DNA from: Myxococcota bacterium
Lineage (GTDB): Bacteria; Myxococcota_A; SURF-8
DNA: 64,000 nucleotides
Direction: 5' to 3'
Assembly: GCA_965140415.1 (NCBI GenBank)
Contig: OZ223209.1
Coordinates: 4,992,001-5,056,000, forward strand
The notes below the pieces were generated by a model. It made no database searches. It saw only the letters and a list, made by a program, of their open reading frames with translations, and was not told the origin of the DNA. Position 1 is the first letter of the stretch. The number at the start of each line of letters is the position of its first letter. Shown here in pieces: positions 1 through 11,312 of the stretch. The translations under genes and the position numbers were made by a program.

Positions 1-1073
1 GCTTCGCTGGCCGTACGCAGAATCTGAAGGTCTTCTTGTTTCCATTGTTTTGAATAGCCGGTCGTATCGAAACCTAAAAACCCCCAGCGCTTATTCCTGA
101 GCCACAGCGGAATCGCCAGTACCGCCAGAATATTCTGAGAGAGCAGCAACTCGCGTTCGTAACAGGCTTCCTCCGGCAGACTCCGGGTATCTTCAATCAG
201 GACCATTCCCTTTTCGGAGATCTGTTTGTACCACCAATTGTCCTGCTTGACCTTCAAATCCTGCATGATGCCGGTTTTGACTTCGACACCTGGAGAGCAC
301 CATTGATACAGGCTGCTCATTCGCATACCGTCATCGTGAAGTCGTACCAGATGCGCCCGGCTTGCTTGAACGACTTTGCCGAGAATCTCCAGAATTTCGT
401 TCATATCGACATCACCGGAGCCTGCCAACAATGAAGAAACATTGGAAACGGCGTGTTCTATTTTCAGCCGATGATTCAAATCGTCGACCGCTTGTTTCCA
501 GTCGGTGATGTCACGCCCGTAACAATTGATGTGCTTCAGGTCGCTACCGTCTTCCAGGTAATGAAAACGCAGGGTAACGCGGGTGTAGTGAATTTTACCT
601 TTGGTGTCGATCAACCGCAGGTCCAGGTGTCCGTTTTCCTTATGTTGTGCCTTCAATTCGTCGATACTAACATCCGCCAGATTGCGATCTTCCGGTGCGA
701 TGAGTTCGAAGACACTGGTACCGATTAAATCCGTTTCCAACCTTCCCAGCATGGAACGGGAATTCGGGTTGATATAGAGAATTTCACCATTGCGCGTCAG
801 GTTGGCAAAGAGATCGCTGGTACCCTCGACGAGTTCCCGGTATTGCGCCTCGCGCTCGGTGAGTTTTTTCTCGGATACGTCAAGTTTTCGGAAATAGAAA
901 TGCAGAACAAGAAACAGCACGATAGCGCTTGCAAGAATAAAGAACCAGCCTTTGTAGGTCTGGGCTAGATGCAAACCGTCCAAGGTAGGGAAAAGAGAAT
1001 AGGCCAATTGATCCGAGAACAGAATCCACAATCCCCCTAAAACAATGTAAATAATCGCAATTCGAAAGGCCAT
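1..1073 (-). CDS. Membrane-anchored PAS + GAF sensor protein (probable histidine kinase or diguanylate cyclase); 3' end runs out of the window
   Basis: Manual translation from ATG at 1073 (not in the ORF track): MAFRIAIIYIVLGGLWILFSD...QTYKGWFFIL (two TM helices), a PAS segment (YRELVE...ILYINPN...GRDITDWK), then a GAF segment (LAIPLW...WGFLGFD). Open to base 1. Confidence 0.85.
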   Translation of the reverse strand, partial: MAFRIAIIYIVLGGLWILFSDQLAYSLFPTLDGLHLAQTYKGWFFILASAIVLFLVLHFYFRKLDVSEKKLTEREAQYRELVEGTSDLFANLTRNGEILYINPNSRSMLGRLETDLIGTSVFELIAPEDRNLADVSIDELKAQHKENGHLDLRLIDTKGKIHYTRVTLRFHYLEDGSDLKHINCYGRDITDWKQAVDDLNHRLKIEHAVSNVSSLLAGSGDVDMNEILEILGKVVQASRAHLVRLHDDGMRMSSLYQWCSPGVEVKTGIMQDLKVKQDNWWYKQISEKGMVLIEDTRSLPEEACYERELLLSQNILAVLAIPLWLRNKRWGFLGFDTTGYSKQWKQEDLQILRTASE

Positions 1074-1291
1074 AGAATACAACCCAGAGAAATAGTGCCT
1101 CCCGTCTTGAGGAGGCGTTTACAACTTATTCGCATCATACCTGATGCCTGACGTTTGTTGTAGTTCAATTTCCAAGTCGTGACAAGTGGTTTTCTTGTAA
1201 GGATGACAGACCGACTGGCATGTTGTGTGATTGAGCGGATATCCCAAGTAACCTGGCGAACAAACCCAATCGATCTTTTAGCCGAAGCTTG

Positions 1292-1320
1292 TTGACTCTG
1301 TAACAGCGACCCGCTATGAT
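1292..1320 (+). promoter_or_regulatory. Sigma70-type promoter for the leader/DCCP operon
   Basis: TTGACT (1292-1297), 17-nt spacer, TATGAT (1315-1320). Confidence 0.7.
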
Positions 1321-1361
1321 TCTCCCGGTGTCAATTCATATTTACCAAAGGAAGATGTGAA

Positions 1362-1466
1362 ATGAGCGATCGCATCATGGCATTAAGCCGCTCAAAAACC
1401 TGAACTGCGTTTCGGAAGCCCGTGGGGCTTCGACGCACACAAACTCGCCGGATTCTACCTGCCTGA
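1362..1466 (+). promoter_or_regulatory. Putative leader peptide (uORF) with an in-frame UGA at 1401 followed by a SECIS-like hairpin
   Basis: AAGGAAG upstream of ATG 1362. Reads MSDRIMALSRSKT-TGA-TAFRKPVGLRRTQTRRILPA-TGA(1464). Hairpin GAAGCCC-GTG-GGGCTTC at 1415-1431 begins 11 nt after the UGA. Confidence 0.5.
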
Positions 1467-1526
1467 TACATAACGACCTCCGGTCAGCAGGCGGGAGCAT
1501 CCGCCACTGCATGAAGGAGGACATTC

Positions 1527-2807
1527 ATGGCCACGGATTATCGACCAATGTGGACCGAACTGGGCTTGGACCTGGAAAAGCACGATGCACTGCTAAACGT
1601 ACTTGGGGATGCTTACCAAAGTCTTTTCATGACCCAGCAGAATCGTCCGGAATCGATGGGATATTTCGATTTCGTAATGAGTGAGGTACACGGATTACGC
1701 ATCCAGGAATTGATGGAAGCCAAGGCTGCCGGACGACTGGTGATCGGCTCGTTCTGCACCTTCGTGCCGGAAGAACTGATTCTGGCGGTGGATGGCGTTT
1801 CCGTCGGATTGTGTGCGGGTGCCGAGTTCGGCACGGAAGCAGCCGAGCGCTTTTTGCCACGCAACACCTGCGCACTGATTAAAAGCGCTTTCGGTTTCGT
1901 TCAGGAACGGGTTTGCCCTTACATCGCCGCCAGCGACTTGATCGTGGGAGAAAACACCTGCGACGGCAAGAAGAAATCCTACGAACAGTTCAAAGACATG
2001 GTGAAGGCTTTCTATGCGATGGATCTTCCGCAAACCAAGAGCGCGGCGGGCCGCACTTTGTTGCAGGCCGAATACGAACGCTTCGCCAAGGAACTGGAGC
2101 AGCGCTCGGGCAAGCAGATTACGACGGAAAGCCTGAAACGCGGAATCGAGATCGTCAACAACAAGCGTAAGGCCATGCATCGCTTGACCAAGCTGCGCCA
2201 GGCCAATCCGGCTCCGATTTCCGGTTTGGACGCCCTGCTGATCAATCAGGTGTTTTTCTATGACGATCCTCTGCGCTTTACCGATTCGGTCAACAAAGTT
2301 TGCGACGAATTAGAAGCACGCATCGAACAAAAACAAGGCGTAACCCCGGAAAACACACCGCGTCTGTTGGTATCCGGTTGCCCGATGGCGGTGCCGAACT
2401 GGAAGCTGCATTCGATCGTGCAGGAGGCCGGAGCGGTGGTAATCGGAGACGAATCCTGCGTAGGCGATCGAGGCACCCAGGTCTTGACCGATGATTCCGC
2501 CGATAGCGTGCAGGGACTGTTGGATGCCGTATGTGAACGCTATCTGAACATCGACTGCGCCATCTTCACACCCAATCCCACTCGGCTCGAACACGTGCAG
2601 CAATTGAATAAAGATGCCAAAGCGGACGGTGTTCTGCACTATTCGATACAGTTCTGCACGCCGTATCAGATGGAAGCGAACGTCTTTGAACCGGAGCTGG
2701 AAAATTCCGGTGTACCGACGTTGCGCATCGACACCGATTACAGCATGGAAGACGCCGAGCAGCTTCGCACACGCCTGGAAGCTTTCATCGAACGGATTAA
2801 AGGCTGA
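1527..2807 (+). CDS. Double-cubane-cluster-containing anaerobic reductase (DCCP-like; HgdB/2-hydroxyacyl-CoA dehydratase superfamily)
   Basis: N-terminus MW..LGLDLEKHD..L, plus FC.FVPEELI, LPRNTCALIKS, GENTCDGKKK, ESCVG, QFC.PY and QLRTRLEAF. Strong RBS GAAGGAGG. Followed by an activator ATPase. Confidence 0.85.
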   Translation: MATDYRPMWTELGLDLEKHDALLNVLGDAYQSLFMTQQNRPESMGYFDFVMSEVHGLRIQELMEAKAAGRLVIGSFCTFVPEELILAVDGVSVGLCAGAEFGTEAAERFLPRNTCALIKSAFGFVQERVCPYIAASDLIVGENTCDGKKKSYEQFKDMVKAFYAMDLPQTKSAAGRTLLQAEYERFAKELEQRSGKQITTESLKRGIEIVNNKRKAMHRLTKLRQANPAPISGLDALLINQVFFYDDPLRFTDSVNKVCDELEARIEQKQGVTPENTPRLLVSGCPMAVPNWKLHSIVQEAGAVVIGDESCVGDRGTQVLTDDSADSVQGLLDAVCERYLNIDCAIFTPNPTRLEHVQQLNKDAKADGVLHYSIQFCTPYQMEANVFEPELENSGVPTLRIDTDYSMEDAEQLRTRLEAFIERIKG

Positions 2808-2809
2808 AT

Positions 2810-3565
2810 ATGAAAACGGCTGGAATCGATATCGGTTCGCGAACCGTGAAACTGGTGGTACTGGAAGATGGCGAAGTGATACTGCAACGTGTGGAATACA
2901 ATTCGCACGATCCGATTGCCATCTGTCGCGCGATGCTGGAAGAAGTGCAAACCGACAACCTGGTGGCAACCGGCTATGGCCGTCACCTGTTCGAGCAGTA
3001 CTGGTCCTGCAAAACCATTACAGAAATCAAGGCTGTAGCTTTGGGTGCACAAGCTCTGCATCCGGAGTGCCGCCAGATTCTGGATATCGGCGGTCAGGAT
3101 ACAAAGGTCGTAGAACTGATGGAAAACGGCTCGGTCGGCAAGTTTGAAATGAACGACAAATGCGCTGCCGGCACCGGGCGTTTTCTGGAAGTGATGGCGA
3201 CCGCCCTGGGTTACAGCATGGAAGATTTCGTATCGCAGGCAAACGAGGCTGAAGAAGCCAAAAAAATCAACGCGATGTGTACGGTTTTCGCCGAAAGTGA
3301 AGTCATTTCCATGGTCGCCCGTGGAATCCCACGCGAGCAACTGGCGTTGGGACTGCATCAGGCTGTCTCCAAACGCTCCCTGGCGATGCTGAGGCGACTG
3401 CGAGGTCGACACGACGTGCTGTTCTGCGGCGGCGCAGCACACAACTCCTGTCTGCACCGTTTACTTCAATCCACTGCAAAACGAACGATCACCGTTCCCG
3501 AACATCCTCAAACGGTGGCGGCATTGGGATGCGCCAGAGCTGCCATGGAACCATCATCAGCCTGA
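2810..3565 (+). CDS. ATP-dependent [4Fe-4S] activator/reductase (acyl-CoA dehydratase activase, DCCP-R-like, ASKHA)
   Basis: GIDIGSRTVK, ATGYGR, LDIGGQDTK, MNDKCAAGTGRFLE and MCTVFAESEVIS motifs. Confidence 0.92.
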   Translation: MKTAGIDIGSRTVKLVVLEDGEVILQRVEYNSHDPIAICRAMLEEVQTDNLVATGYGRHLFEQYWSCKTITEIKAVALGAQALHPECRQILDIGGQDTKVVELMENGSVGKFEMNDKCAAGTGRFLEVMATALGYSMEDFVSQANEAEEAKKINAMCTVFAESEVISMVARGIPREQLALGLHQAVSKRSLAMLRRLRGRHDVLFCGGAAHNSCLHRLLQSTAKRTITVPEHPQTVAALGCARAAMEPSSA

Positions 3566-3598
3566 TCGAAACGAATCAAGCCTTACCATTTTTCCTTT

Positions 3599-3636
3599 CC
3601 GCCGGAGTCGAAAATGAATTCGATTCCGGCGGTTTC
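3599..3636 (+). terminator. Stem-loop after the DCCP operon (possible intrinsic terminator)
   Basis: CCGCCGGAGTCGAA...TTCGATTCCGGCGG followed by TTTC. Confidence 0.5.
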
Positions 3637-3688
3637 ATGTTGTATTGGCAAAAGGGCAAGTCTATTTTGAACCGATACAACTTGAGCA

Positions 3689-3716
3689 TTGCATTTTTCG
3701 GATCCCCTTATATAAT
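3689..3716 (+). promoter_or_regulatory. Sigma70-type promoter for the giant lipoprotein gene
   Basis: TTGCAT (3689-3694), 16-nt spacer, TATAAT (3711-3716). Confidence 0.5.
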
Positions 3717-3827
3717 GAGTCTGGGAAATATTTGTATTCAGCAAAACAAGGGAATTTCGGAAAAGGTCCGAAGTCTTTCGTCTGTTAGCTTACTAAGGGG
3801 TAAGTAGGATTGAGAAAGGGGTTGATT

Positions 3828-6800
3828 ATGCCATCGATTAGATATCTGCTGCTAGTGTGGATCATCGTTATGCTTTCCATATACGGGGTTGGATGCGGAG
3901 GCGATGACGATCCTCAAGAAGACGGAGACCTCTCCGAGGCTGAAAGCGATGCGACCCAGCCGGATGGAGACGACGATATGCCCGTCATTCCTCCCGATGG
4001 TGACACCGCAGACGGTGACACCGCAGACGGTGACACAGCAGATGGAGATACCGCTGACGGCGACCTGATCGATGGAGACAAAGTAGACGGAGACTGGATC
4101 GACGGCGATGGAACCGATGGGGACATGGTCGATGGCGATGGAAGCGACGGAGACTGGATCGACGGCGACTGGATTGACGGTGATGGCGAACAGTTTTGTA
4201 GCGGCTGCGAAGAATTCGCCGGAACCTATTGCGTAGCTGAAGCCACTGGGAGCAATTGCGATGCCTATCCGGTGGAAATGGTGAGTATCGAAGAAGACGA
4301 CGAAATCGAGTGCGGATACACGGTAACCGTCTTCATCACCGGCTACAGCCCTCAATCAGTCGATGTAGTCGGCTGTGATTTCCAGGACGAAAGCGTGCTT
4401 GGAGTGTGTTCGGTCAGCGTCGATCAGGGAGAGATCCTGGTGGATTGCTCCACCATTTGTTCCGCCGTACTGAATCAGGAAGCCTGCTTAACCGACGGCG
4501 ACGGTATCGACGGCGACTTTATTGACGGCGATGTCATCGACGGCGATGTAATTGATGGCGACGTGGTTGACGGCGATGTGATCGACGGCGACGTAATCGA
4601 TGGTGACATGATCGATGGCGATGTGATCGACGGCGACGTGATCGACGGCGATGTGATCGATGGCGATGTGATTGACGGCGATGTGATTGACGGCGACGTG
4701 ATTGATGGCGATATAATTGATGGCGATATAATTGAGTATCCCGCTCCTGCACCAGGCGACGTTATTTTCACGGAATTTCTGGCCAACACCACCGGCTCGG
4801 TTGCAGAGCAACTCGGCGAATGGATGGAAGTCGTCAACCTCACCAATGAAACCTTCGGGCTGGGCGGACTGAACCTTTGTGATGCCGTAGACGGGAATTG
4901 CGAAGTACTACCGGCGAATCTTGTGATCGGTCCGTATGAAGCTTTGATTTTTGCCGGTTCCGATGACTCCGGTGTAAATGGCGGATTGACAAATGTCGCT
5001 TATGACTTCGGATTCTCGCTAAACAACAGCGGCGACAAACTGCGCCTGATCGATGGTAGCCCGGCGGATGGTGTCTTGATCGATGAAGTGGATGCCTCCA
5101 CCTGGGATCAGATTGCCGGTGTTTCCTGGCAGCTTGACCCGGCGCATTTCGATGTTCTGGAAAACGACGATGCAAGTTATTGGTGCCTGGGATCCTTGCA
5201 ATACCTCGCAGACGGTCCTCACTACGGCACCCCCGGAACGATGAATGTCAGCTGTGAAATCGTCGATGGCGATGGTGTTGATGGCGACGTAATTGATGGC
5301 GACATGGTCGACGGTGATATCGTCGATGGTGATATCGTCGATGGTGATATCGTCGATGGCGATATGGTCGACGGCGACATGATCGATGGTGATATCGTCG
5401 ATGGTGATATTGTTGATGGCGACATGGTCGACGGTGATATTGTTGATGGCGACATCATTGATGGCGATGTCGTTGATGGTGACGTGGTCGACGGTGACAT
5501 GATCGACGGTGACATGATCGACGGAGATATGGTCGATGGTGATGTCATCGATGGCGATGTAGTGGATTGCTACGGCTACGGCGATTGCAATGCCGCCTGC
5601 ATCAATGCCGGATACGATTCCGGTGTGTGTGTAGACGCCATTCAAGGTTGTACCTGTAACTATGCAAGCTGCGAAGCTTATGTCTGTGGCACCTACTACG
5701 ACAACTGCTCCTGCGCGGCGGCGGACCCCTGCAACTGGCAGGGCGATGACTACTGTGATGATTTCTGCGCCCTGGTGTACCCGGACGATCACTTTGACGA
5801 CAGTGCCGACTGTTCGGTCGACGGTGATATTGTCGATGGTGATATGGTCGACGGCGACATCATTGATGGCGATGTCGTTGATGGTGACGTGGTGGACGGC
5901 GATGTTATTGATGGTGACATAATTGACGGTGACATAATTGACGGTGATGTCATCGATGGCGATGTGGTGGATTGCTACGGCTACGGCGATTGCAACGCCG
6001 CCTGCATCGATGCCGGATACGATTCCGGTGTGTGTGTAGACGCCATTCAAGGTTGTACCTGCAACTATGCAAGCTGCGAAGCTTATGTCTGTGGCACCTA
6101 CTACGACAACTGCTCCTGCGCGGCGGCGGACCCCTGCAACTGGCAGGGCGATGATTACTGTGACGATTTCTGCGCCCTGGTATACCCGGACGATCATTTT
6201 GACGACAGTGCCGACTGTTCGGTGGACGGCGATGTCATCGACGGTGACGTGGTGGATGGCGACATCGTAGACGGTGACATCATTGACGGCGATGTCGTGG
6301 ATGGCGATATCGTACCGCTGTCCGGTGAGAATTGCGGAAATGCCATTGCGATTACCGGTCTTCCTTACTCGGATACCGGTGAGATGGCGAACTACATGAA
6401 CGACGTCTTTTTCTCTACCAATGGTGAAAGCTGCACGGGCTACACCAACTATGGAAAAGATGTCCTCTACGCGGTGGAGTTGGAAGCCGGACAGATCCTG
6501 AATGCATCGCTGGATGCCAATTTCGATAGCGCCCTGTATCTCTTGAATAATTGCGTTAACGGCGAATTGCCTGCCGAAATGTGTGTGGAAGGTTCCGACA
6601 GCGGAAACCCGGAAACGCTTTCCGTGGAAATTCAAGACGCCGGCACCTACTACCTGGTGGTGGACTACTGGAACTCAAGCGGACCTTCTTCGGGAAGTTA
6701 CGAGTTGAGCGTCTGGACAGGCAGTGCAGACGGCGACGTCGTGGATGGTGACATCGGGCCGCTGTCCGGTGACAATTGCGGAAATGCAATCTCGATTACC

Positions 6801-9800
6801 GGTCTTCCTTACTCCGATACCGGCGAAATGGCAAACTACTTGAACGATGTCTTTTTCTCCTCCAACGATGAAAGCTGTACGGGTTACGTCAACAGCGGAA
6901 AAGATGTCATTTACGCGGTGGAACTGGAAGCCGGGCAGGCTCTGAATGCGTCACTTGATGCCGATTTCGACAGCGCCCTTTATCTGCTCAGCAACTGTTT
7001 GAACGGCGAATTAGCCTCTGAACTATGTGTTGAAGGTTCCGACAGCGGAAACCCGGAAACACTTTCCGTAGTCATTCAAAACGCTGGCACTTACTACCTC
7101 GTAGTGGATTACTGGAATTCCGGCGGACCATCTTCGGGAAGTTATGAACTGAGTGTTTGGTCGGGCAGCGTAGACGGCGACGTGATCGACGGTGACGTGA
7201 TCGACGGTGACGTGGTCGACGGTGACGTGATCGACGGTGACGTGGTCGACGGCGATGTGGTGGACGGCGATGTCGTTTCTCCTTTCTGTCCGGGCTACAC
7301 CGGAACGAGCGATTGCTGCCGCCTGGACAACTCCTGCGACTGGGCGGAAGACGGCTGGTGCGATTGCGGCGGAACTTGCCCCTGGGATGTCGTAGATTGC
7401 AGCGTCGATGGTGACATTATCGACGGCGATGTGGTCGATGGCGATATGGTCGATGGAGATGTCATCGACGGTGACATGGTTGACGGCGATGTGATCGATG
7501 GCGACATTATCGACGGTGATGTACATCCTGATGACAACTATGAAGACAATGATTCTTTCGAAGAAGCCGTAGAGGGACCGCTTAGTATCACCCCGCTCTT
7601 CCTGGCCGACAACGACGACGATTATTTCTACTACGATGTCTGTCCGGGTGGCACCATCACCACGGACGTGTACTTCCTCCACGAGGATCTGGATATCGAT
7701 ATTATTCTTAGGGATTCCAGTAGCTCTGCCATTGGGTATGGAACGAGCAGTGATGACAATGAACACATTACCTGGATAAACAGCGGCGCAGAAACAGAAC
7801 GGGTCGTTCTTCAAATTGGACGTGCGGAAAGCGGTTGGGCAGAGTACATCCTGATGGTTACTATTGAGGATTGCGATGTTGATGGTGATGTGATCGATGG
7901 GGATGTGGTCGACGGTGATATTGAACCTGCATTGAACTGGGTACGACTATACCCCGACACGGTTCCCACCGCACGCTTCGGTCATAACATGGCCTATAAT
8001 CCGGATACCGGCAACACGCTGATGGCCTTTGGGCAAGGTAGCTATACAACCATGTACGAATGGGATGGTAGCAACTGGAATTCCGTGGTTCCAGCTCATC
8101 GTCCTACCGCATATCGATTCAACAGCATGGTTTATCACGAAGGGCTTGGAAAAATGGTGCTGTTCGGCGGCAATACCTGCTGCCCGAACGTATCCTACGC
8201 TGAAACCTGGCTTTTCGATGGAACGGACTGGGAACAGCTGATTACGGCGACCACACCGCCGGAGCGGCAAAATGCCGTGATGGCGTATGATTCCATCCGC
8301 GATGTCATTGTGATGCATGGCGGTTCCAACTACGACGACACCACCATTGTTGAGCTGAACGACACCTGGGAATTCGATGGAACCGACTGGAACCAGGTTG
8401 TCACAGACACAACGGGGCCAACCACAAACAGTGCCGCCATGGCATTCGATCCCATACTTGAGAAAATGGTCCTGGTGGATGGCACGGACACTTGGTTATA
8501 CGATGGAACAGACTGGGAAATGATTTCCCCGGCAACGGTCATTGGCCACCGCAGTTCGCCCGTATTGGCTTTTGATACCTGGCGTGGTGTAACGGTGCTG
8601 TTCGGCGGCAATTCCAGCTACGGCACGTTTGAGTTCGATGGCACGGACTGGACAGAAATCACCACGGAAGATTCACCACCTCTGACGTTAAACAATGGCT
8701 TCATGGTGTTCGATCCCATTGCGGGTCACATGTTGTTGTTCGGTGGTTCAGGTTGCGACTCCGGCTACTGTAACGAAACCTGGATCTACGGACCGGAAAG
8801 CATTGTAGACGGAGATGTCGTTGATGGTGATATTGTCGATGGAGACATTGTAGACGGCGACATCGTGGATGGTGATATTGTCGATGGAGACATTGTAGAC
8901 GGCGACGTGGTCGATGGTGACGTGATTGACGGCGACATTGTGGATGGCGACATGGTGGACGGTGATGTGGTAGATGGCGACGTGGTGGATGGCGATATTG
9001 TAGACGGTGATGTGGACAACAGTTGCATCGATGATTTGTATGAACCGAACGACAACGATGCGGAAGCAACGAGTGGCAACTGGTACGACTGGTCGGATCT
9101 GGTCATTTGCGGCGAGAACGAAGACTGGTTCGAGGTGTACATCGATCATTCCCATTACACCAATCATTATGCAGGCGATTCCACGATCGTCTACCTGTAC
9201 AATTCCAGCTTGACCCTGCTCGGCTCAACCGCTGACGATCCAGGCAGTTTCTTGAATGTTCAAGATTGCTTGCCTGCTGGAAACTACCTGTTGAAAGTAG
9301 TTTCAGCCACAGGAAGTGACGTTTCTAACTACTCTGTGTACATCGGAACATCTTCCTGCACGATTGACGGCGACATTGTAGATGGTGATGTGGTAGACGG
9401 AGATATCGTAGACGGTGATATCGTTGACGGAGACGTAGTGGATGGAGATGTCGTGGATTGCAGCGGATCTTGTAATCTCGGCGAATCCGACTTCTGTTCC
9501 GATGCAGACACCATCTGCACCTGCGAATTCAGCAAAGCTGTTTCAGGCTCCTGGACTGCATACAATTGCAATGACATCTGTGAATTTGGGGCACTGGGAT
9601 GCGGGTTTGATCCGGACACAGGAGCCTATTGCATGTGCAATGAACCCGATGGAGATGTGGTCGACGGCGACATCGTAGACGGCGACATTGTAGACGGTGA
9701 CATCGTGGATGGTGACATTGTGGATGGTGACATTGTTGATGGTGATGTCGTGGATGGAGATATTGTAGACGGCGATGCAGGACCTTGCCCAGAATGTGCG

Positions 9801-11312
9801 GACTTCCCCGGCCAGTATTGCATTTTGTCGCAGGAGGGCGCCGGTTGTGCTGCCTTAGGCGTACAGTATATTGTGGTTTCGGAAGATCCGGATACGGAAT
9901 GTGGATTCATTGTCACTTCCGTTCTGGATGGCCAGCCCAATGCAGACATACCAATGCAAGGATGTACCTTCGTCAACACACCATTCGGTGATTTCTGTAC
10001 GATTACCAGTCTTCCGGATGGAACTTTTACTGCGGATTGTTCCGGTATGTGCTCCTATGTTTTCAGTAAAGATGTCTGCGTTCCGGACGGCGATGTCGTC
10101 GATGGTGATGTCGCAGACGGTGATGTAGATACCACACTGGGTTTGCCCACAGAAGCGGGACAGTTGGTTATTACTGAAATCATGAATAACCCCAGTGTCA
10201 TTTCGGATACGTTTGGGGAATGGTTTGAAGTCTACAATCCAACATCCTTAACCTTCGATCTGAATGGCTTGTCAATCCAAGACGCTGGTTCCGACAACGT
10301 TACCGTAGAAGGCAGCCTGCTGATCGGTCCGCATGAATATCTGGTATTTGGAAACAACAGCGACACCGGAACCAATTCCGGCGTTGTTTTAGACTACGCC
10401 TACGCACCTGATGCATTTTATTTAGGTAACAGCGACGACGAAATCCACCTATATAGCGGGGATACATTAATCGATGCAGTCGAATACGATAACGGAGCAA
10501 CATTCCCGGACCCGATCGGACATTCGATGTATCTCGATGCTCTGAAAATTGGAGATGACAACAACGACGGAACGAATTGGTGCCAGGACTTGGAAAACCC
10601 ATACGGCGTTGGCGATAATTATGGAACGCCGGGAGTCGTCAACCCGCGCTGCCCCATGGGTGAAATCCTATGTGGTGAAGGCATAGCGATAGACCTGATC
10701 AATGGAACGAGAATGTGGGAAAACTACTCGCAATCTCATGCCGGCTTCGTGGGCCCTGAAAGTGTATACGCATTTACCGTACCGGATTGTCCGTTCCAAC
10801 TTTCCGTGGATGCCACTTTAATTACCAGTGGCTTCCCGGCAAGTTTGTTGGTACTGGAAAAGTTGGATCCCGGTACATTTATGGCTGGTACAGATTTGCA
10901 GGTGGCGGATCCTACGTTGAATCTGTATCTTACGCCGGGAGAGACCTATTATTTTGTCATTGACACCCCAATTGTCGACGTTTCCTTCTCATTGCAGCTC
11001 AGTATTGCATGTAATTGCCTTCCACCAACCTATCGCGTTCATTATTTTTCGGGTTGGACACCGCCCTACATGCACTACAGCCCCGATCTTGGTACAACAT
11101 GGACAGACCTTCCGGGAGCAGCCATGACCGCTGAAGGTAATGGTTGGTGGTTCAAGGATGTATATAGTTCCCTCGTCCTTCCATTGACTTTTGTTTTCAA
11201 TGATGGTGCCGACAACTGGGACAATCCTCCCGGAGGCGGAAACTACACGACCCTGGACCCGGAAGTCTGGGTGAAAGATGGAGTTATCTACACGTCGATG
11301 CCTGTTCGCTAG
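3828..11312 (+). CDS. Giant acidic modular surface lipoprotein: DGDxx repeat linkers, 2 lamin-tail-like domains, Cys-rich repeats, PPC-like modules, Kelch-like propeller, C-terminal CBM25/26-like starch-binding module
   Basis: ATG 3828 follows a purine-rich RBS. Signal peptide ends GVG-C. LTD-like segments (VIFTEFLAN..GEWMEVVN..GTPG; LVITEIMNNP..GEWFEVYN..GTPG). Propeller repeats (MVLFGG..ETWLFDGTDW). C-terminus PYMHY..WT.LPG.AM..GWW..FVFNDG..WDN. Confidence 0.85.
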   Translation: MPSIRYLLLVWIIVMLSIYGVGCGGDDDPQEDGDLSEAESDATQPDGDDDMPVIPPDGDTADGDTADGDTADGDTADGDLIDGDKVDGDWIDGDGTDGDMVDGDGSDGDWIDGDWIDGDGEQFCSGCEEFAGTYCVAEATGSNCDAYPVEMVSIEEDDEIECGYTVTVFITGYSPQSVDVVGCDFQDESVLGVCSVSVDQGEILVDCSTICSAVLNQEACLTDGDGIDGDFIDGDVIDGDVIDGDVVDGDVIDGDVIDGDMIDGDVIDGDVIDGDVIDGDVIDGDVIDGDVIDGDIIDGDIIEYPAPAPGDVIFTEFLANTTGSVAEQLGEWMEVVNLTNETFGLGGLNLCDAVDGNCEVLPANLVIGPYEALIFAGSDDSGVNGGLTNVAYDFGFSLNNSGDKLRLIDGSPADGVLIDEVDASTWDQIAGVSWQLDPAHFDVLENDDASYWCLGSLQYLADGPHYGTPGTMNVSCEIVDGDGVDGDVIDGDMVDGDIVDGDIVDGDIVDGDMVDGDMIDGDIVDGDIVDGDMVDGDIVDGDIIDGDVVDGDVVDGDMIDGDMIDGDMVDGDVIDGDVVDCYGYGDCNAACINAGYDSGVCVDAIQGCTCNYASCEAYVCGTYYDNCSCAAADPCNWQGDDYCDDFCALVYPDDHFDDSADCSVDGDIVDGDMVDGDIIDGDVVDGDVVDGDVIDGDIIDGDIIDGDVIDGDVVDCYGYGDCNAACIDAGYDSGVCVDAIQGCTCNYASCEAYVCGTYYDNCSCAAADPCNWQGDDYCDDFCALVYPDDHFDDSADCSVDGDVIDGDVVDGDIVDGDIIDGDVVDGDIVPLSGENCGNAIAITGLPYSDTGEMANYMNDVFFSTNGESCTGYTNYGKDVLYAVELEAGQILNASLDANFDSALYLLNNCVNGELPAEMCVEGSDSGNPETLSVEIQDAGTYYLVVDYWNSSGPSSGSYELSVWTGSADGDVVDGDIGPLSGDNCGNAISITGLPYSDTGEMANYLNDVFFSSNDESCTGYVNSGKDVIYAVELEAGQALNASLDADFDSALYLLSNCLNGELASELCVEGSDSGNPETLSVVIQNAGTYYLVVDYWNSGGPSSGSYELSVWSGSVDGDVIDGDVIDGDVVDGDVIDGDVVDGDVVDGDVVSPFCPGYTGTSDCCRLDNSCDWAEDGWCDCGGTCPWDVVDCSVDGDIIDGDVVDGDMVDGDVIDGDMVDGDVIDGDIIDGDVHPDDNYEDNDSFEEAVEGPLSITPLFLADNDDDYFYYDVCPGGTITTDVYFLHEDLDIDIILRDSSSSAIGYGTSSDDNEHITWINSGAETERVVLQIGRAESGWAEYILMVTIEDCDVDGDVIDGDVVDGDIEPALNWVRLYPDTVPTARFGHNMAYNPDTGNTLMAFGQGSYTTMYEWDGSNWNSVVPAHRPTAYRFNSMVYHEGLGKMVLFGGNTCCPNVSYAETWLFDGTDWEQLITATTPPERQNAVMAYDSIRDVIVMHGGSNYDDTTIVELNDTWEFDGTDWNQVVTDTTGPTTNSAAMAFDPILEKMVLVDGTDTWLYDGTDWEMISPATVIGHRSSPVLAFDTWRGVTVLFGGNSSYGTFEFDGTDWTEITTEDSPPLTLNNGFMVFDPIAGHMLLFGGSGCDSGYCNETWIYGPESIVDGDVVDGDIVDGDIVDGDIVDGDIVDGDIVDGDVVDGDVIDGDIVDGDMVDGDVVDGDVVDGDIVDGDVDNSCIDDLYEPNDNDAEATSGNWYDWSDLVICGENEDWFEVYIDHSHYTNHYAGDSTIVYLYNSSLTLLGSTADDPGSFLNVQDCLPAGNYLLKVVSATGSDVSNYSVYIGTSSCTIDGDIVDGDVVDGDIVDGDIVDGDVVDGDVVDCSGSCNLGESDFCSDADTICTCEFSKAVSGSWTAYNCNDICEFGALGCGFDPDTGAYCMCNEPDGDVVDGDIVDGDIVDGDIVDGDIVDGDIVDGDVVDGDIVDGDAGPCPECADFPGQYCILSQEGAGCAALGVQYIVVSEDPDTECGFIVTSVLDGQPNADIPMQGCTFVNTPFGDFCTITSLPDGTFTADCSGMCSYVFSKDVCVPDGDVVDGDVADGDVDTTLGLPTEAGQLVITEIMNNPSVISDTFGEWFEVYNPTSLTFDLNGLSIQDAGSDNVTVEGSLLIGPHEYLVFGNNSDTGTNSGVVLDYAYAPDAFYLGNSDDEIHLYSGDTLIDAVEYDNGATFPDPIGHSMYLDALKIGDDNNDGTNWCQDLENPYGVGDNYGTPGVVNPRCPMGEILCGEGIAIDLINGTRMWENYSQSHAGFVGPESVYAFTVPDCPFQLSVDATLITSGFPASLLVLEKLDPGTFMAGTDLQVADPTLNLYLTPGETYYFVIDTPIVDVSFSLQLSIACNCLPPTYRVHYFSGWTPPYMHYSPDLGTTWTDLPGAAMTAEGNGWWFKDVYSSLVLPLTFVFNDGADNWDNPPGGGNYTTLDPEVWVKDGVIYTSMPVR
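4492..4733 (+). repeat. 15-bp tandem coding repeat, DGD(V/I/M)(V/I); one of ~13 such tracts in the gene (e.g. also ~5265-5565 and ~8808-9015)
   Basis: Visible GAYGGHGAYRTNRTN periodicity with varied synonymous codons. Confidence 0.95.
5568..6224 (+). repeat. Near-identical ~250-bp intragenic duplication (Cys-rich module at 5568-5819 and 5973-6224)
   Basis: CYGYGDCNAACI(N/D)AGYDSGVCVDAIQGC...DSADCSV occurs twice with a 405-bp period and almost identical DNA. Confidence 0.95.

Follow-up and report, generated by a model that had tools for sequence, protein, structure and literature searches.

A leader resembling a selenium sensor, with a UGA codon and a SECIS-like hairpin, upstream of a double-cubane cluster protein operon in a Myxococcota bacterium

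The DNA described here, 64,000 nucleotides (nt) of contig OZ223209.1 (assembly GCA_965140415.1, positions 4,992,001 to 5,056,000; referred to below as the window), comes from a Myxococcota bacterium and carries near its start an operon for the double-cubane cluster protein (DCCP) and an ATP-dependent activase. The 5' leader of this operon looks like a natural selenium sensor within the mRNA. With a probability of roughly 0.8 it is a ribosome-mediated attenuator that senses at one UGA codon, where termination by release factor competes with insertion of selenocysteine (Sec) dependent on SelB and a selenocysteine insertion sequence (SECIS). The layout of the leader is conserved, the genome has the Sec machinery, and the hairpin behind the UGA shares register and loop type with SECIS elements. 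A second stop lies in the UGA frame, a hairpin sequesters the Shine-Dalgarno sequence (SD) of the next gene, and selenium-related genes stand behind the same leader elsewhere.

Positions are numbered over the whole window, on the + strand unless stated, and those of the features are collected in Table 1. Every leader feature listed in a preliminary description of this DNA, drawn up from the sequence alone, agrees in its coordinates with the sequence. The UGA at 1401-1403, which ends a short upstream open reading frame (uORF), is the proposed Sec/stop decision codon. Exactly 11 nt past it begins a hairpin of 7 base pairs (bp), GAAGCCC-GUG-GGGCUUC (1415-1431), set on a lower stem of 5 bp. Counted from the U of the UGA, its loop begins at 21 nt, and the SECIS-like structure is the fold of the 48 nt counted from the UGA, at -17.9 kcal/mol. 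Farther downstream CCUCC 1477-1481 pairs with GGAGG 1516-1520 in a sequestering hairpin of -23.9 kcal/mol (z = -2.4). The preliminary description also placed a good sigma-70 promoter before these parts. A sigma-70-like site is indeed present at 1292-1320, the sole match within 900-3900, and as a putative promoter its position implies a leader of ~200 nt; since 2.1 matches are expected in shuffled sequence, the site is not significant by itself.

In the proposed mechanism, ribosomes would initiate on the 13-codon uORF and arrive at UGA 1401. If charged Sec-tRNA(Sec)-SelB is available, it would dock on hairpin 1406-1437, Sec would be inserted, and 20 more codons would be translated to the stop at 1464. 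A ribosome at this second stop would cover strand 1458-1465; with that strand covered, hairpin 1477-1520 would bury the DCCP SD and DCCP would be off. When selenium or Sec-tRNA is short, the ribosome would leave at UGA 1401, the free strand 1458-1465 would pair with 1488-1495, the sequestrator would not form, and DCCP would be translated. Sec insertion, SelB binding and the polarity of this switch are what we infer from the sequence features.

DCCP orthologues (E <= 1e-40) were found in eight of 61 related genomes, the window's own included, and the layout is present at all eight. A BLAST search with the leader DNA against the 60 relatives gave no match. The layout recurs without a match at the DNA level, and its conservation, rather than the single copy, shows more than chance. 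A wider set consists of 80 DCCP loci at 63-75% identity, 81 with the window; it holds 35 clear leaders and two doubtful ones in Zixibacteria, and its leader-bearing loci are drawn from about ten phylum-level groups. By record titles the hosts are Myxococcota, Binatia, Eisenbacteria, Cloacimonadota, Spirochaetota/Leptospirales, Syntrophorhabdales, Syntrophus, Thermoanaerobaculia and unclassified bins. Kinship among the sequences inflates all counts given here; outside the motif, the DNA of the leaders cannot be aligned. In the common layout a uORF with its SD runs to an invariant UGA, and a GC hairpin, a second in-frame stop ~60 nt later and an SD-sequestering hairpin follow. Upstream of the other DCCP loci the sequence is of different kinds.

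The UGA and the hairpin are tied to each other by distance. When the 81 loci were scanned for hairpins with the loop at -128..-85 and without regard to stop codons, 39 strong hairpins were found. Thirty-three are of the leader class, and all 33 have a TGA 19-22 nt before the loop; at this register TAA or TAG occurs in none of the 39. The hairpin itself covaries. In an alignment of 37 sequences fitted to the model, 86.5% of the cells are paired (slid controls <= 68.7%), and 36 cells with a double change compare with 11.5 ± 3.6 in shuffles, none of 500 shuffles being as high. Changes on both sides are seen in six of the seven pairs. The TGA, one C and one G (alignment column 32) are invariant at a fixed distance, and the loops are GUG, CGUGN, GGUC or GGU. 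A core consensus by MAFFT and RNAalifold was poor since the 3' arm is displaced by loop lengths of 3, 4 or 5 nt, and a structure given by hand was used in its place. The spacing of UGA and hairpin on which the preliminary description relied is conserved in relatives, with covariation across phyla.

The second stop is also bound to the frame of the UGA. In 32 of 37 leaders the first stop in this frame falls at -85..-45 from the DCCP ATG, compared with 8 of 37 and 6 of 37 for the alternative frames; counted by frame, the stop triplets within -90..-40 number 39, 12 and 13. The 37 first in-frame stops comprise 21 TGA, 9 TAA and 7 TAG. A second set of 40, retrieved with the core model or with a pattern lacking the second-stop feature, has an in-frame stop at +57..+86 in 34 (other frames 2/40 and 8/40), its six misses being matches judged to be chance, partly by the second-stop criterion itself. 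An invariant UGA followed by a same-frame stop of any kind is the signature expected of a Sec codon. An SD and a start codon precede the UGA in 29 of the 35 leaders, with a median uORF of 10 codons. In one large group the uORF has Pro-Leu-x before the UGA, written CCA or CCG and TTA, TTG or CTG, and this synonymous usage points to selection at the amino-acid level. These features indicate that the uORF is translated.

A translated frame that stays open to a conserved stop, and that always stands 5' of selenium-related genes, might also encode a functional selenopeptide of ~33 residues, e.g., a selenium carrier, whose only tie to the selenium genes is co-transcription. We regard this as highly improbable. 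The peptide sequences are not conserved between groups, no cysteine (Cys) or redox motif lies near the putative Sec position, spacers of 11 or 12 nt put the hairpin in different frames, and the second stop is tied to the SD-sequestering hairpin.

Reading the UGA as a Sec codon presupposes that the organism can insert Sec, and the machinery is present. The window's genome (5.98 Mb, a single contig; its relatives are labelled Myxococcota metagenome-assembled genomes, MAGs) has a tRNA-Sec gene (selC, 69.5 bits) directly 5' of selA (453 bits) and selB (315 bits). It also has selD in two copies. One selD, at G000:C1:1066875-1067798, sits in an open frame of 734 amino acids (aa), probably a fusion protein. 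In-frame TGA codons with a hairpin behind them were sought by a scan and their genes then compared with Pfam; four selenoprotein genes emerged, namely FdhA, two proteins of the AhpC/TSA (peroxiredoxin) family and FlpD/MvhD. Their SECIS elements have stems of 6-7 bp and loops GUC, GGUC, AGGUC and GGC, and these loops begin 20-23 nt from the U of the UGA, a range that includes the 21 nt of the window leader. For FdhA the comparison can be extended to eight genomes, five with DCCP leaders and three with leaders before yedF or Cys-FdhA. In these the Sec codon is followed by 12 nt and then by GUCGCC-GGUCU-GGCGGC. C19 and G21 of this SECIS (U of UGA = 0) coincide with the invariant C and G of the leaders, and leaders with GGUC loops have the identical register. 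The conserved G of the apical loop would be the contact with SelB.

A hairpin with SECIS-like loop and stem features could act without any decoding, as an operator on which SelB with Sec-tRNA represses, the uORF and UGA being incidental. The SECIS-like element in the E. coli selAB leader, for which PMC3892789 cites Thanbichler and Bock 2002, is reportedly a precedent. For the element described here this is very improbable, since the window hairpin lies ~95 nt 5' of the DCCP SD, not over it, and is accompanied by an in-frame UGA and a uORF. Fixed-register UGA, uORF with SD, synonymous Pro-Leu codons and in-frame second stop together indicate translation through the site.

The segment from second stop to ATG folds with z < -2 in 30 of 32 leader-bearing loci (median -3.6), with the SD window base-paired in 31 of the 32, and among leaderless DCCP loci z < -2 is reached in just 2 of 43. 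The base of the sequestrator begins 0-17 nt past the second stop, at the leading edge of a terminating ribosome. An intrinsic terminator was considered for this second hairpin and not adopted; a strict scan finds a terminator with U-tract in only 5 of 65 leaders. In the window itself, the anti-sequestrator duplex has -24.0 kcal/mol (z -3.4), and pairing 1458-1465/1488-1495 is present in the minimum free energy (MFE) structure of the whole leader (-70.1 kcal/mol, z -2.14). Segment 1440-1545 has two conformers of -31.7 and -30.1 kcal/mol; with a difference of 1.6 they are nearly isoenergetic, and no single structure dominates. When the linker, i.e., the read-through region, is masked, accessibility of the SD falls from 0.47 to 0.36, in the direction that the model of the preliminary description has it.

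The leader is not confined to DCCP. Further copies were found with the core model and, in metagenomes, with a degenerate pattern that gave 27 matches, 23 of them judged genuine. Above curated cut-offs, the leader is found 5' of yedE (TIGR04112, 416-431 bits, four genomes), of yedF (TIGR03527, 202 bits) and of a gene of the ArsS radical-SAM (seleno)protein family (422 bits). One leader-borne operon runs from yedE and yedF through a member of the cysteine desulfurase family (TIGR01977, 442 bits) on to selD (TIGR00476, 333 bits). SsuA/Sao-like ATP-binding cassette (ABC) transporters are also preceded by it. The 23 metagenome leaders were classed by the first recognisable gene, by BLAST to a reference set: eight stand before DCCP or activase, four before a yedF-like gene followed by DCCP, and four before yedE (with yedF). 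The rest precede, with scores below curated cut-offs, genes that are HdrA-like (1), NF045663-like (2), Rhodanese-like (1) or BT_3928-like (2), and one has no recognisable gene; in L153 the BT_3928-like gene is followed by a TsoB/rhodanese-like gene. Among 151 Myxococcota genomes (E <= 0.01) there are matches in 11, six of which are DCCP leaders. The other five look like chance matches in coding DNA and were rejected.

In a spirochaete MAG (G447) one contig bears two leaders. Behind the first are genes for FdhA (TIGR01591, 814 bits), an HdrA2-like protein, an MvhD/VhuD-like protein and a member of the OS_HP2 (seleno)protein family, without in-frame TGA; FdhA and MvhD of this operon have Cys exactly at the Sec positions of the window's own genome. 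A second FdhA gene, with an in-frame TGA, lies elsewhere in the G447 genome. The second leader is followed by three unassigned ORFs and then a SaoP/SaoA-like ABC transporter. The link of DCCP to selenium offered in the preliminary description is strengthened by the occurrence of the same leader before yedE, yedF and selD operons and Cys isoforms of selenoenzymes.

Some results weigh against a Sec-decoding attenuator. Leader covariance model R1, run on the window's genome, found the DCCP leader as the sole copy and did not retrieve the true SECIS elements. An Rfam covariance-model scan of window positions 1-6000 (E <= 10) gave no relevant family and no SECIS family. Of the leader-bearing genomes checked, 23 of 26 have selB above cut-off, and two of the other three have Sec-encoding genes, giving selB or a Sec-encoding gene in 25 of 26. 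One of the genomes, G064, has FdhA with an in-frame TGA, yet selA, selB and tRNA-Sec were not found in it; in leader-bearing G084, a fragmented MAG, selA, selB, tRNA-Sec and Sec-FdhA were all not found. In a check that covered 40 of the 80 loci, selB is present in 35 of 39 DCCP genomes, leader or not, and its near-universal presence does not discriminate. The second-stop rule is broken in 5 of the 37 leaders: one (L023) runs into DCCP, the two Zixibacteria candidates stop after 2-4 codons, and two Cloacimonadota leaders (L028, L035) have a tandem in-frame TGA-NNN-TGA. Complementarity of the anti-sequestrator is significant (z < -2) in only 11 of 32 leaders, mostly of the Myxococcota/Binatia group with the window included. 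Averaged over the family, SD accessibility is 0.39 in the free RNA; masking of the linker gives 0.35, and a ribosome footprint placed at the second stop 0.43. With such a footprint accessibility rises by more than 0.1 in 10 of 38 leaders, and it falls in 5 of 38. No switch that is consistent over the whole family emerges from equilibrium folding.

Of the stop codons UGA is the leakiest, and a leaky UGA with a downstream hairpin could in principle sense RF2 activity, general translation or something else that is independent of selenium. The leader-bearing MAG without detected Sec machinery would fit such a device. It is the least probable of the explanations considered, for the genes behind the leader are overwhelmingly selenium-linked, loop and register match true SECIS elements of the same genomes, and 25 of the 26 leader-bearing genomes checked bear signs of Sec use.

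Provided that the element senses Sec decoding at all, it is probably on under selenium shortage. The argument comes from gene content, which points to a selenium-starvation regulon: with uptake and activation genes and Cys stand-ins behind the leader, failure of decoding would be the signal that switches them on. In statements of the cited reports, selenium starvation lifts yedE mRNA by 5.28 log2 in Methanococcus maripaludis (PMC11097638), and fdhF-Cys transcripts of Treponema primitia go up under selenium limitation (PMC3892789). The polarity first proposed, with selenium limitation as the on state, fits the genes behind the leader and is left unsettled by folding of the family. Since equilibrium modelling does not decide, either kinetic competition during transcription or the reverse polarity may apply.

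The reverse would be the same sensor, on with selenium: a ribosome reading through would melt the anti-SD (translational coupling) or shield a C-rich stretch from Rho. Several features suit it. In ~22 of 32 free-RNA MFE structures a segment 2-28 nt past the second stop already holds the SD in base pairs, the sequestrator base is within reach of a ribosome there (0-17 nt), and the footprint model opens the SD more often than it closes it. If DCCP has a cofactor that requires selenium, as raised in a passage of Haft and Gwadz (bioRxiv 10.1101/2022.07.06.499078), gating of its expression by selenium would make sense. We consider this polarity unlikely. The leader precedes Cys FdhA and MvhD in a genome that also holds Sec-FdhA, and it precedes uptake genes (yedE, ABC transporters), and for both groups induction by shortage is expected; in the window, masking the read-through region lowers SD accessibility.

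More tentatively, and at somewhat less than even odds, the leader may mark a bacterial selenium-starvation regulon that the ribosome reads out directly, with DCCP and its activase as the most frequent members beside genes of selenium uptake and activation and genes for Cys versions of selenoenzymes. The other members would be yedE, yedF, cysteine desulfurase/Sec-lyase-like genes, selD and Sao-like ABC transporters, together with Cys FdhA, HdrA, MvhD and others. Within this reading DCCP would have one of two roles. It might replace a Sec-dependent low-potential reductase, as an ATP-driven enzyme without selenium, or it might mobilise refractory selenium reductively for SelD. A yedF-like gene stands immediately 5' of DCCP in four metagenome operons. 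Either role would explain the co-occurrence of DCCP and SelD described by Haft and Gwadz.

Table 1. Features of the leader and of the DCCP operon, numbered from the first letter of the window
Feature	Position	Strand	Remarks
Promoter-like site TTGACT-17 nt-TATGAT	1292..1320	+	sigma-70-like consensus match, 10/12 bases
SD of the leader ORF, AAGGAAG	1348..1354	+	7 nt 5' of its ATG
Leader ORF (uORF)	1362..1403	+	ATG 1362, 13 sense codons (MSDRIMALSRSKT), UGA 1401-1403
SECIS-like stem-loop	1406..1437	+	lower stem TGCGT/ACGCA 1406-1410/1433-1437; upper stem 1415-1421/1425-1431; loop GUG 1422-1424
Putative read-through extension	1404..1466	+	20 codons, then second stop TGA 1464-1466
Putative anti-sequestrator strand CCUGCCUG	1458..1465	+	overlaps second stop; partner 1488-1495
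SD-sequestering hairpin	1477..1520	+	anti-SD CCUCC 1477-1481; inner helix 1484-1494/1501-1512; DCCP SD GGAGG 1516-1520
DCCP, 426 aa	1527..2807	+	PF06050 3.5e-113; NF040772 446.7 bits, cut-off 350
ATP-dependent activase / DCCP reductase, 251 aa	2810..3565	+	PF01869; TIGR00241 224 bits, cut-off 125
Terminator-like hairpin with T-run	3599..3632	+	closes two-gene operon

A minimal start-stop frame (ATG TGA) lies at 1355-1360 of the window, between the SD and the ATG of the uORF and 2 nt before that ATG. The uORF shares its frame with DCCP, and the in-frame stops at 1401, 1464 and 1512 are all TGA; the identity of frame is probably incidental because the frames differ in other orthologues. Upstream, at 3-1082 on the - strand, is a divergent gene for a membrane-anchored PAS-GAF sensor protein, truncated by the window end and with its own terminator-like hairpin at 1116-1097. 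Downstream, an ORF of 2500 aa (3810-11312, +) consists mostly of tandem repeats of the (V/I)DGD type, between which Cys-rich and beta-propeller-like modules are scattered. These repeats give rise to spurious Rfam Gut-1 and microRNA matches at 5215-5474, and the Gut-1 match was rejected because it falls in coding repeats.

Variant forms of the leader were seen at other DCCP loci. In L028 and L035, ~130 nt 5' of the DCCP ATG, the uORF ends Cys-TGA-AAA/AGA-TGA, with two UGAs in frame at a distance of 6 nt; it is the second that stands at the usual 11 nt from the hairpin, and a frame-0 TAA follows at -63 or -61. These may be a two-Sec or a stop-then-Sec variant. Four loci, L042, L090 (about -196 from DCCP), L050 and L080, have the motif tttaccTGA followed by a hairpin with a CGGGUU loop, farther upstream than usual, which may be a diverged form. 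The leaderless Smithella/Syntrophaceae loci (L036, L038, L044, L058, L077, L079) share a different conserved upstream box, attccttttattcattggcg, which suggests another regulator for DCCP.

In yedE/yedF-type leaders (L122, L126, L124, L053), the sequestered SD belongs to another small ORF, with TTG-GCN-AAA as its first codons. This ORF is 11 codons long in L124, encodes 80-83 aa in L122 (1631-1882) and L126, where it matches no family, and stops at or close to the start of yedE; a two-step relay is possible. In L076 a TusA/YedF-like ORF (1617-1853, -) behind the second leader of the locus ends TGA-TAG, and this resembles the UGA-UAG ends that, in a passage of Haft and Gwadz, are read as C-terminal Sec in SaoC. 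Three metagenome loci (L134, L139, L145) have a leader-controlled operon of DCCP, activase, a second DCCP and an SsuA/SaoX-like binding protein, with an ABC permease in addition in L145. These operons link DCCP to a Sao-like transporter.

A connection of DCCP with selenium has been proposed before on other grounds. As stated in part of their report, Haft and Gwadz 2022 (bioRxiv 10.1101/2022.07.06.499078) found 955 of 970 NF040772 double-cubane proteins in SelD-containing assemblies; they describe a family without known selenium connection, for which they propose a role involving selenium compounds or a cofactor bridged by selenium. The leader, as predicted here, is an independent and mechanistic link alongside that co-occurrence. 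It makes DCCP function directly testable, by a tie to selenium economy that does not depend on phylogenetic profiling. A full-text search of the literature found no description of a Sec-codon leader, in agreement with the preliminary description, whose author knew of none. According to a statement in PMC3892789, a leader-type attenuator based on a rare amino acid has not been reported in nature. Upstream of yedE in E. coli K-12 no leader was found, the best score of model R2 (10.1 bits) lying elsewhere in the 30 kb; its absence there may account for its being overlooked. If the proposal is true, this would be the first natural attenuator that senses by recoding of a stop codon and the first RNA-level selenium sensor in bacteria. 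The leader would also provide a sequence signature for locating selenium-responsive genes in uncultured anaerobes and a candidate mechanism for selenium repression of Cys isoforms, e.g., fdhF-Cys in spirochaetes.

What appears to be new is the use of SECIS-dependent recoding as the sensor in ribosome-mediated attenuation, itself of a known kind. With the leader-peptide attenuators of trp, his and ermC the element would share a short translated uORF, the supply of one charged tRNA that sets the position of the ribosome and selects between exclusive pairings, and regulated genes that serve the sensed nutrient. In those systems ribosomes stall at sense codons, whereas here recoding would compete with termination at a stop codon and would need a cis hairpin and a dedicated elongation factor; the output here would be SD sequestration. 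With SECIS elements inside bacterial genes, e.g., FdhA of the window's genome, the leader shares the UGA, the stem-loop, a G-containing apical loop at the same distance and the presumed dependence on selA, selB, selC and selD. It differs from them in lying in a leader ORF of ~33 codons that has no conserved product and ends at a conserved stop beside a regulatory hairpin. In the SelB operator of E. coli selAB, too, expression is tied to Sec status by a SECIS-like hairpin of the 5' leader. That element reportedly has no decoded UGA, uORF or second stop and acts at the initiation region of the regulated gene itself.

Two further systems respond to selenium status. Failed decoding of UGA as Sec alters downstream expression in fdhF-Sec of Treponema primitia as well, where, in the account given in PMC3892789, translation and transcription are coupled at a UGA inside the selenoprotein gene itself; here the UGA belongs to a separate leader. 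The leader before the Cys-FdhA operon of the spirochaete MAG could explain the fdhF-Cys side of T. primitia. In Methanococcus, HrsM/LysR_Se governs a selenium-status regulon that includes Cys isoforms, as described in part of PMC5322559. HrsM is an archaeal protein transcription factor, whereas the sensor proposed here would be the translating ribosome on the mRNA.

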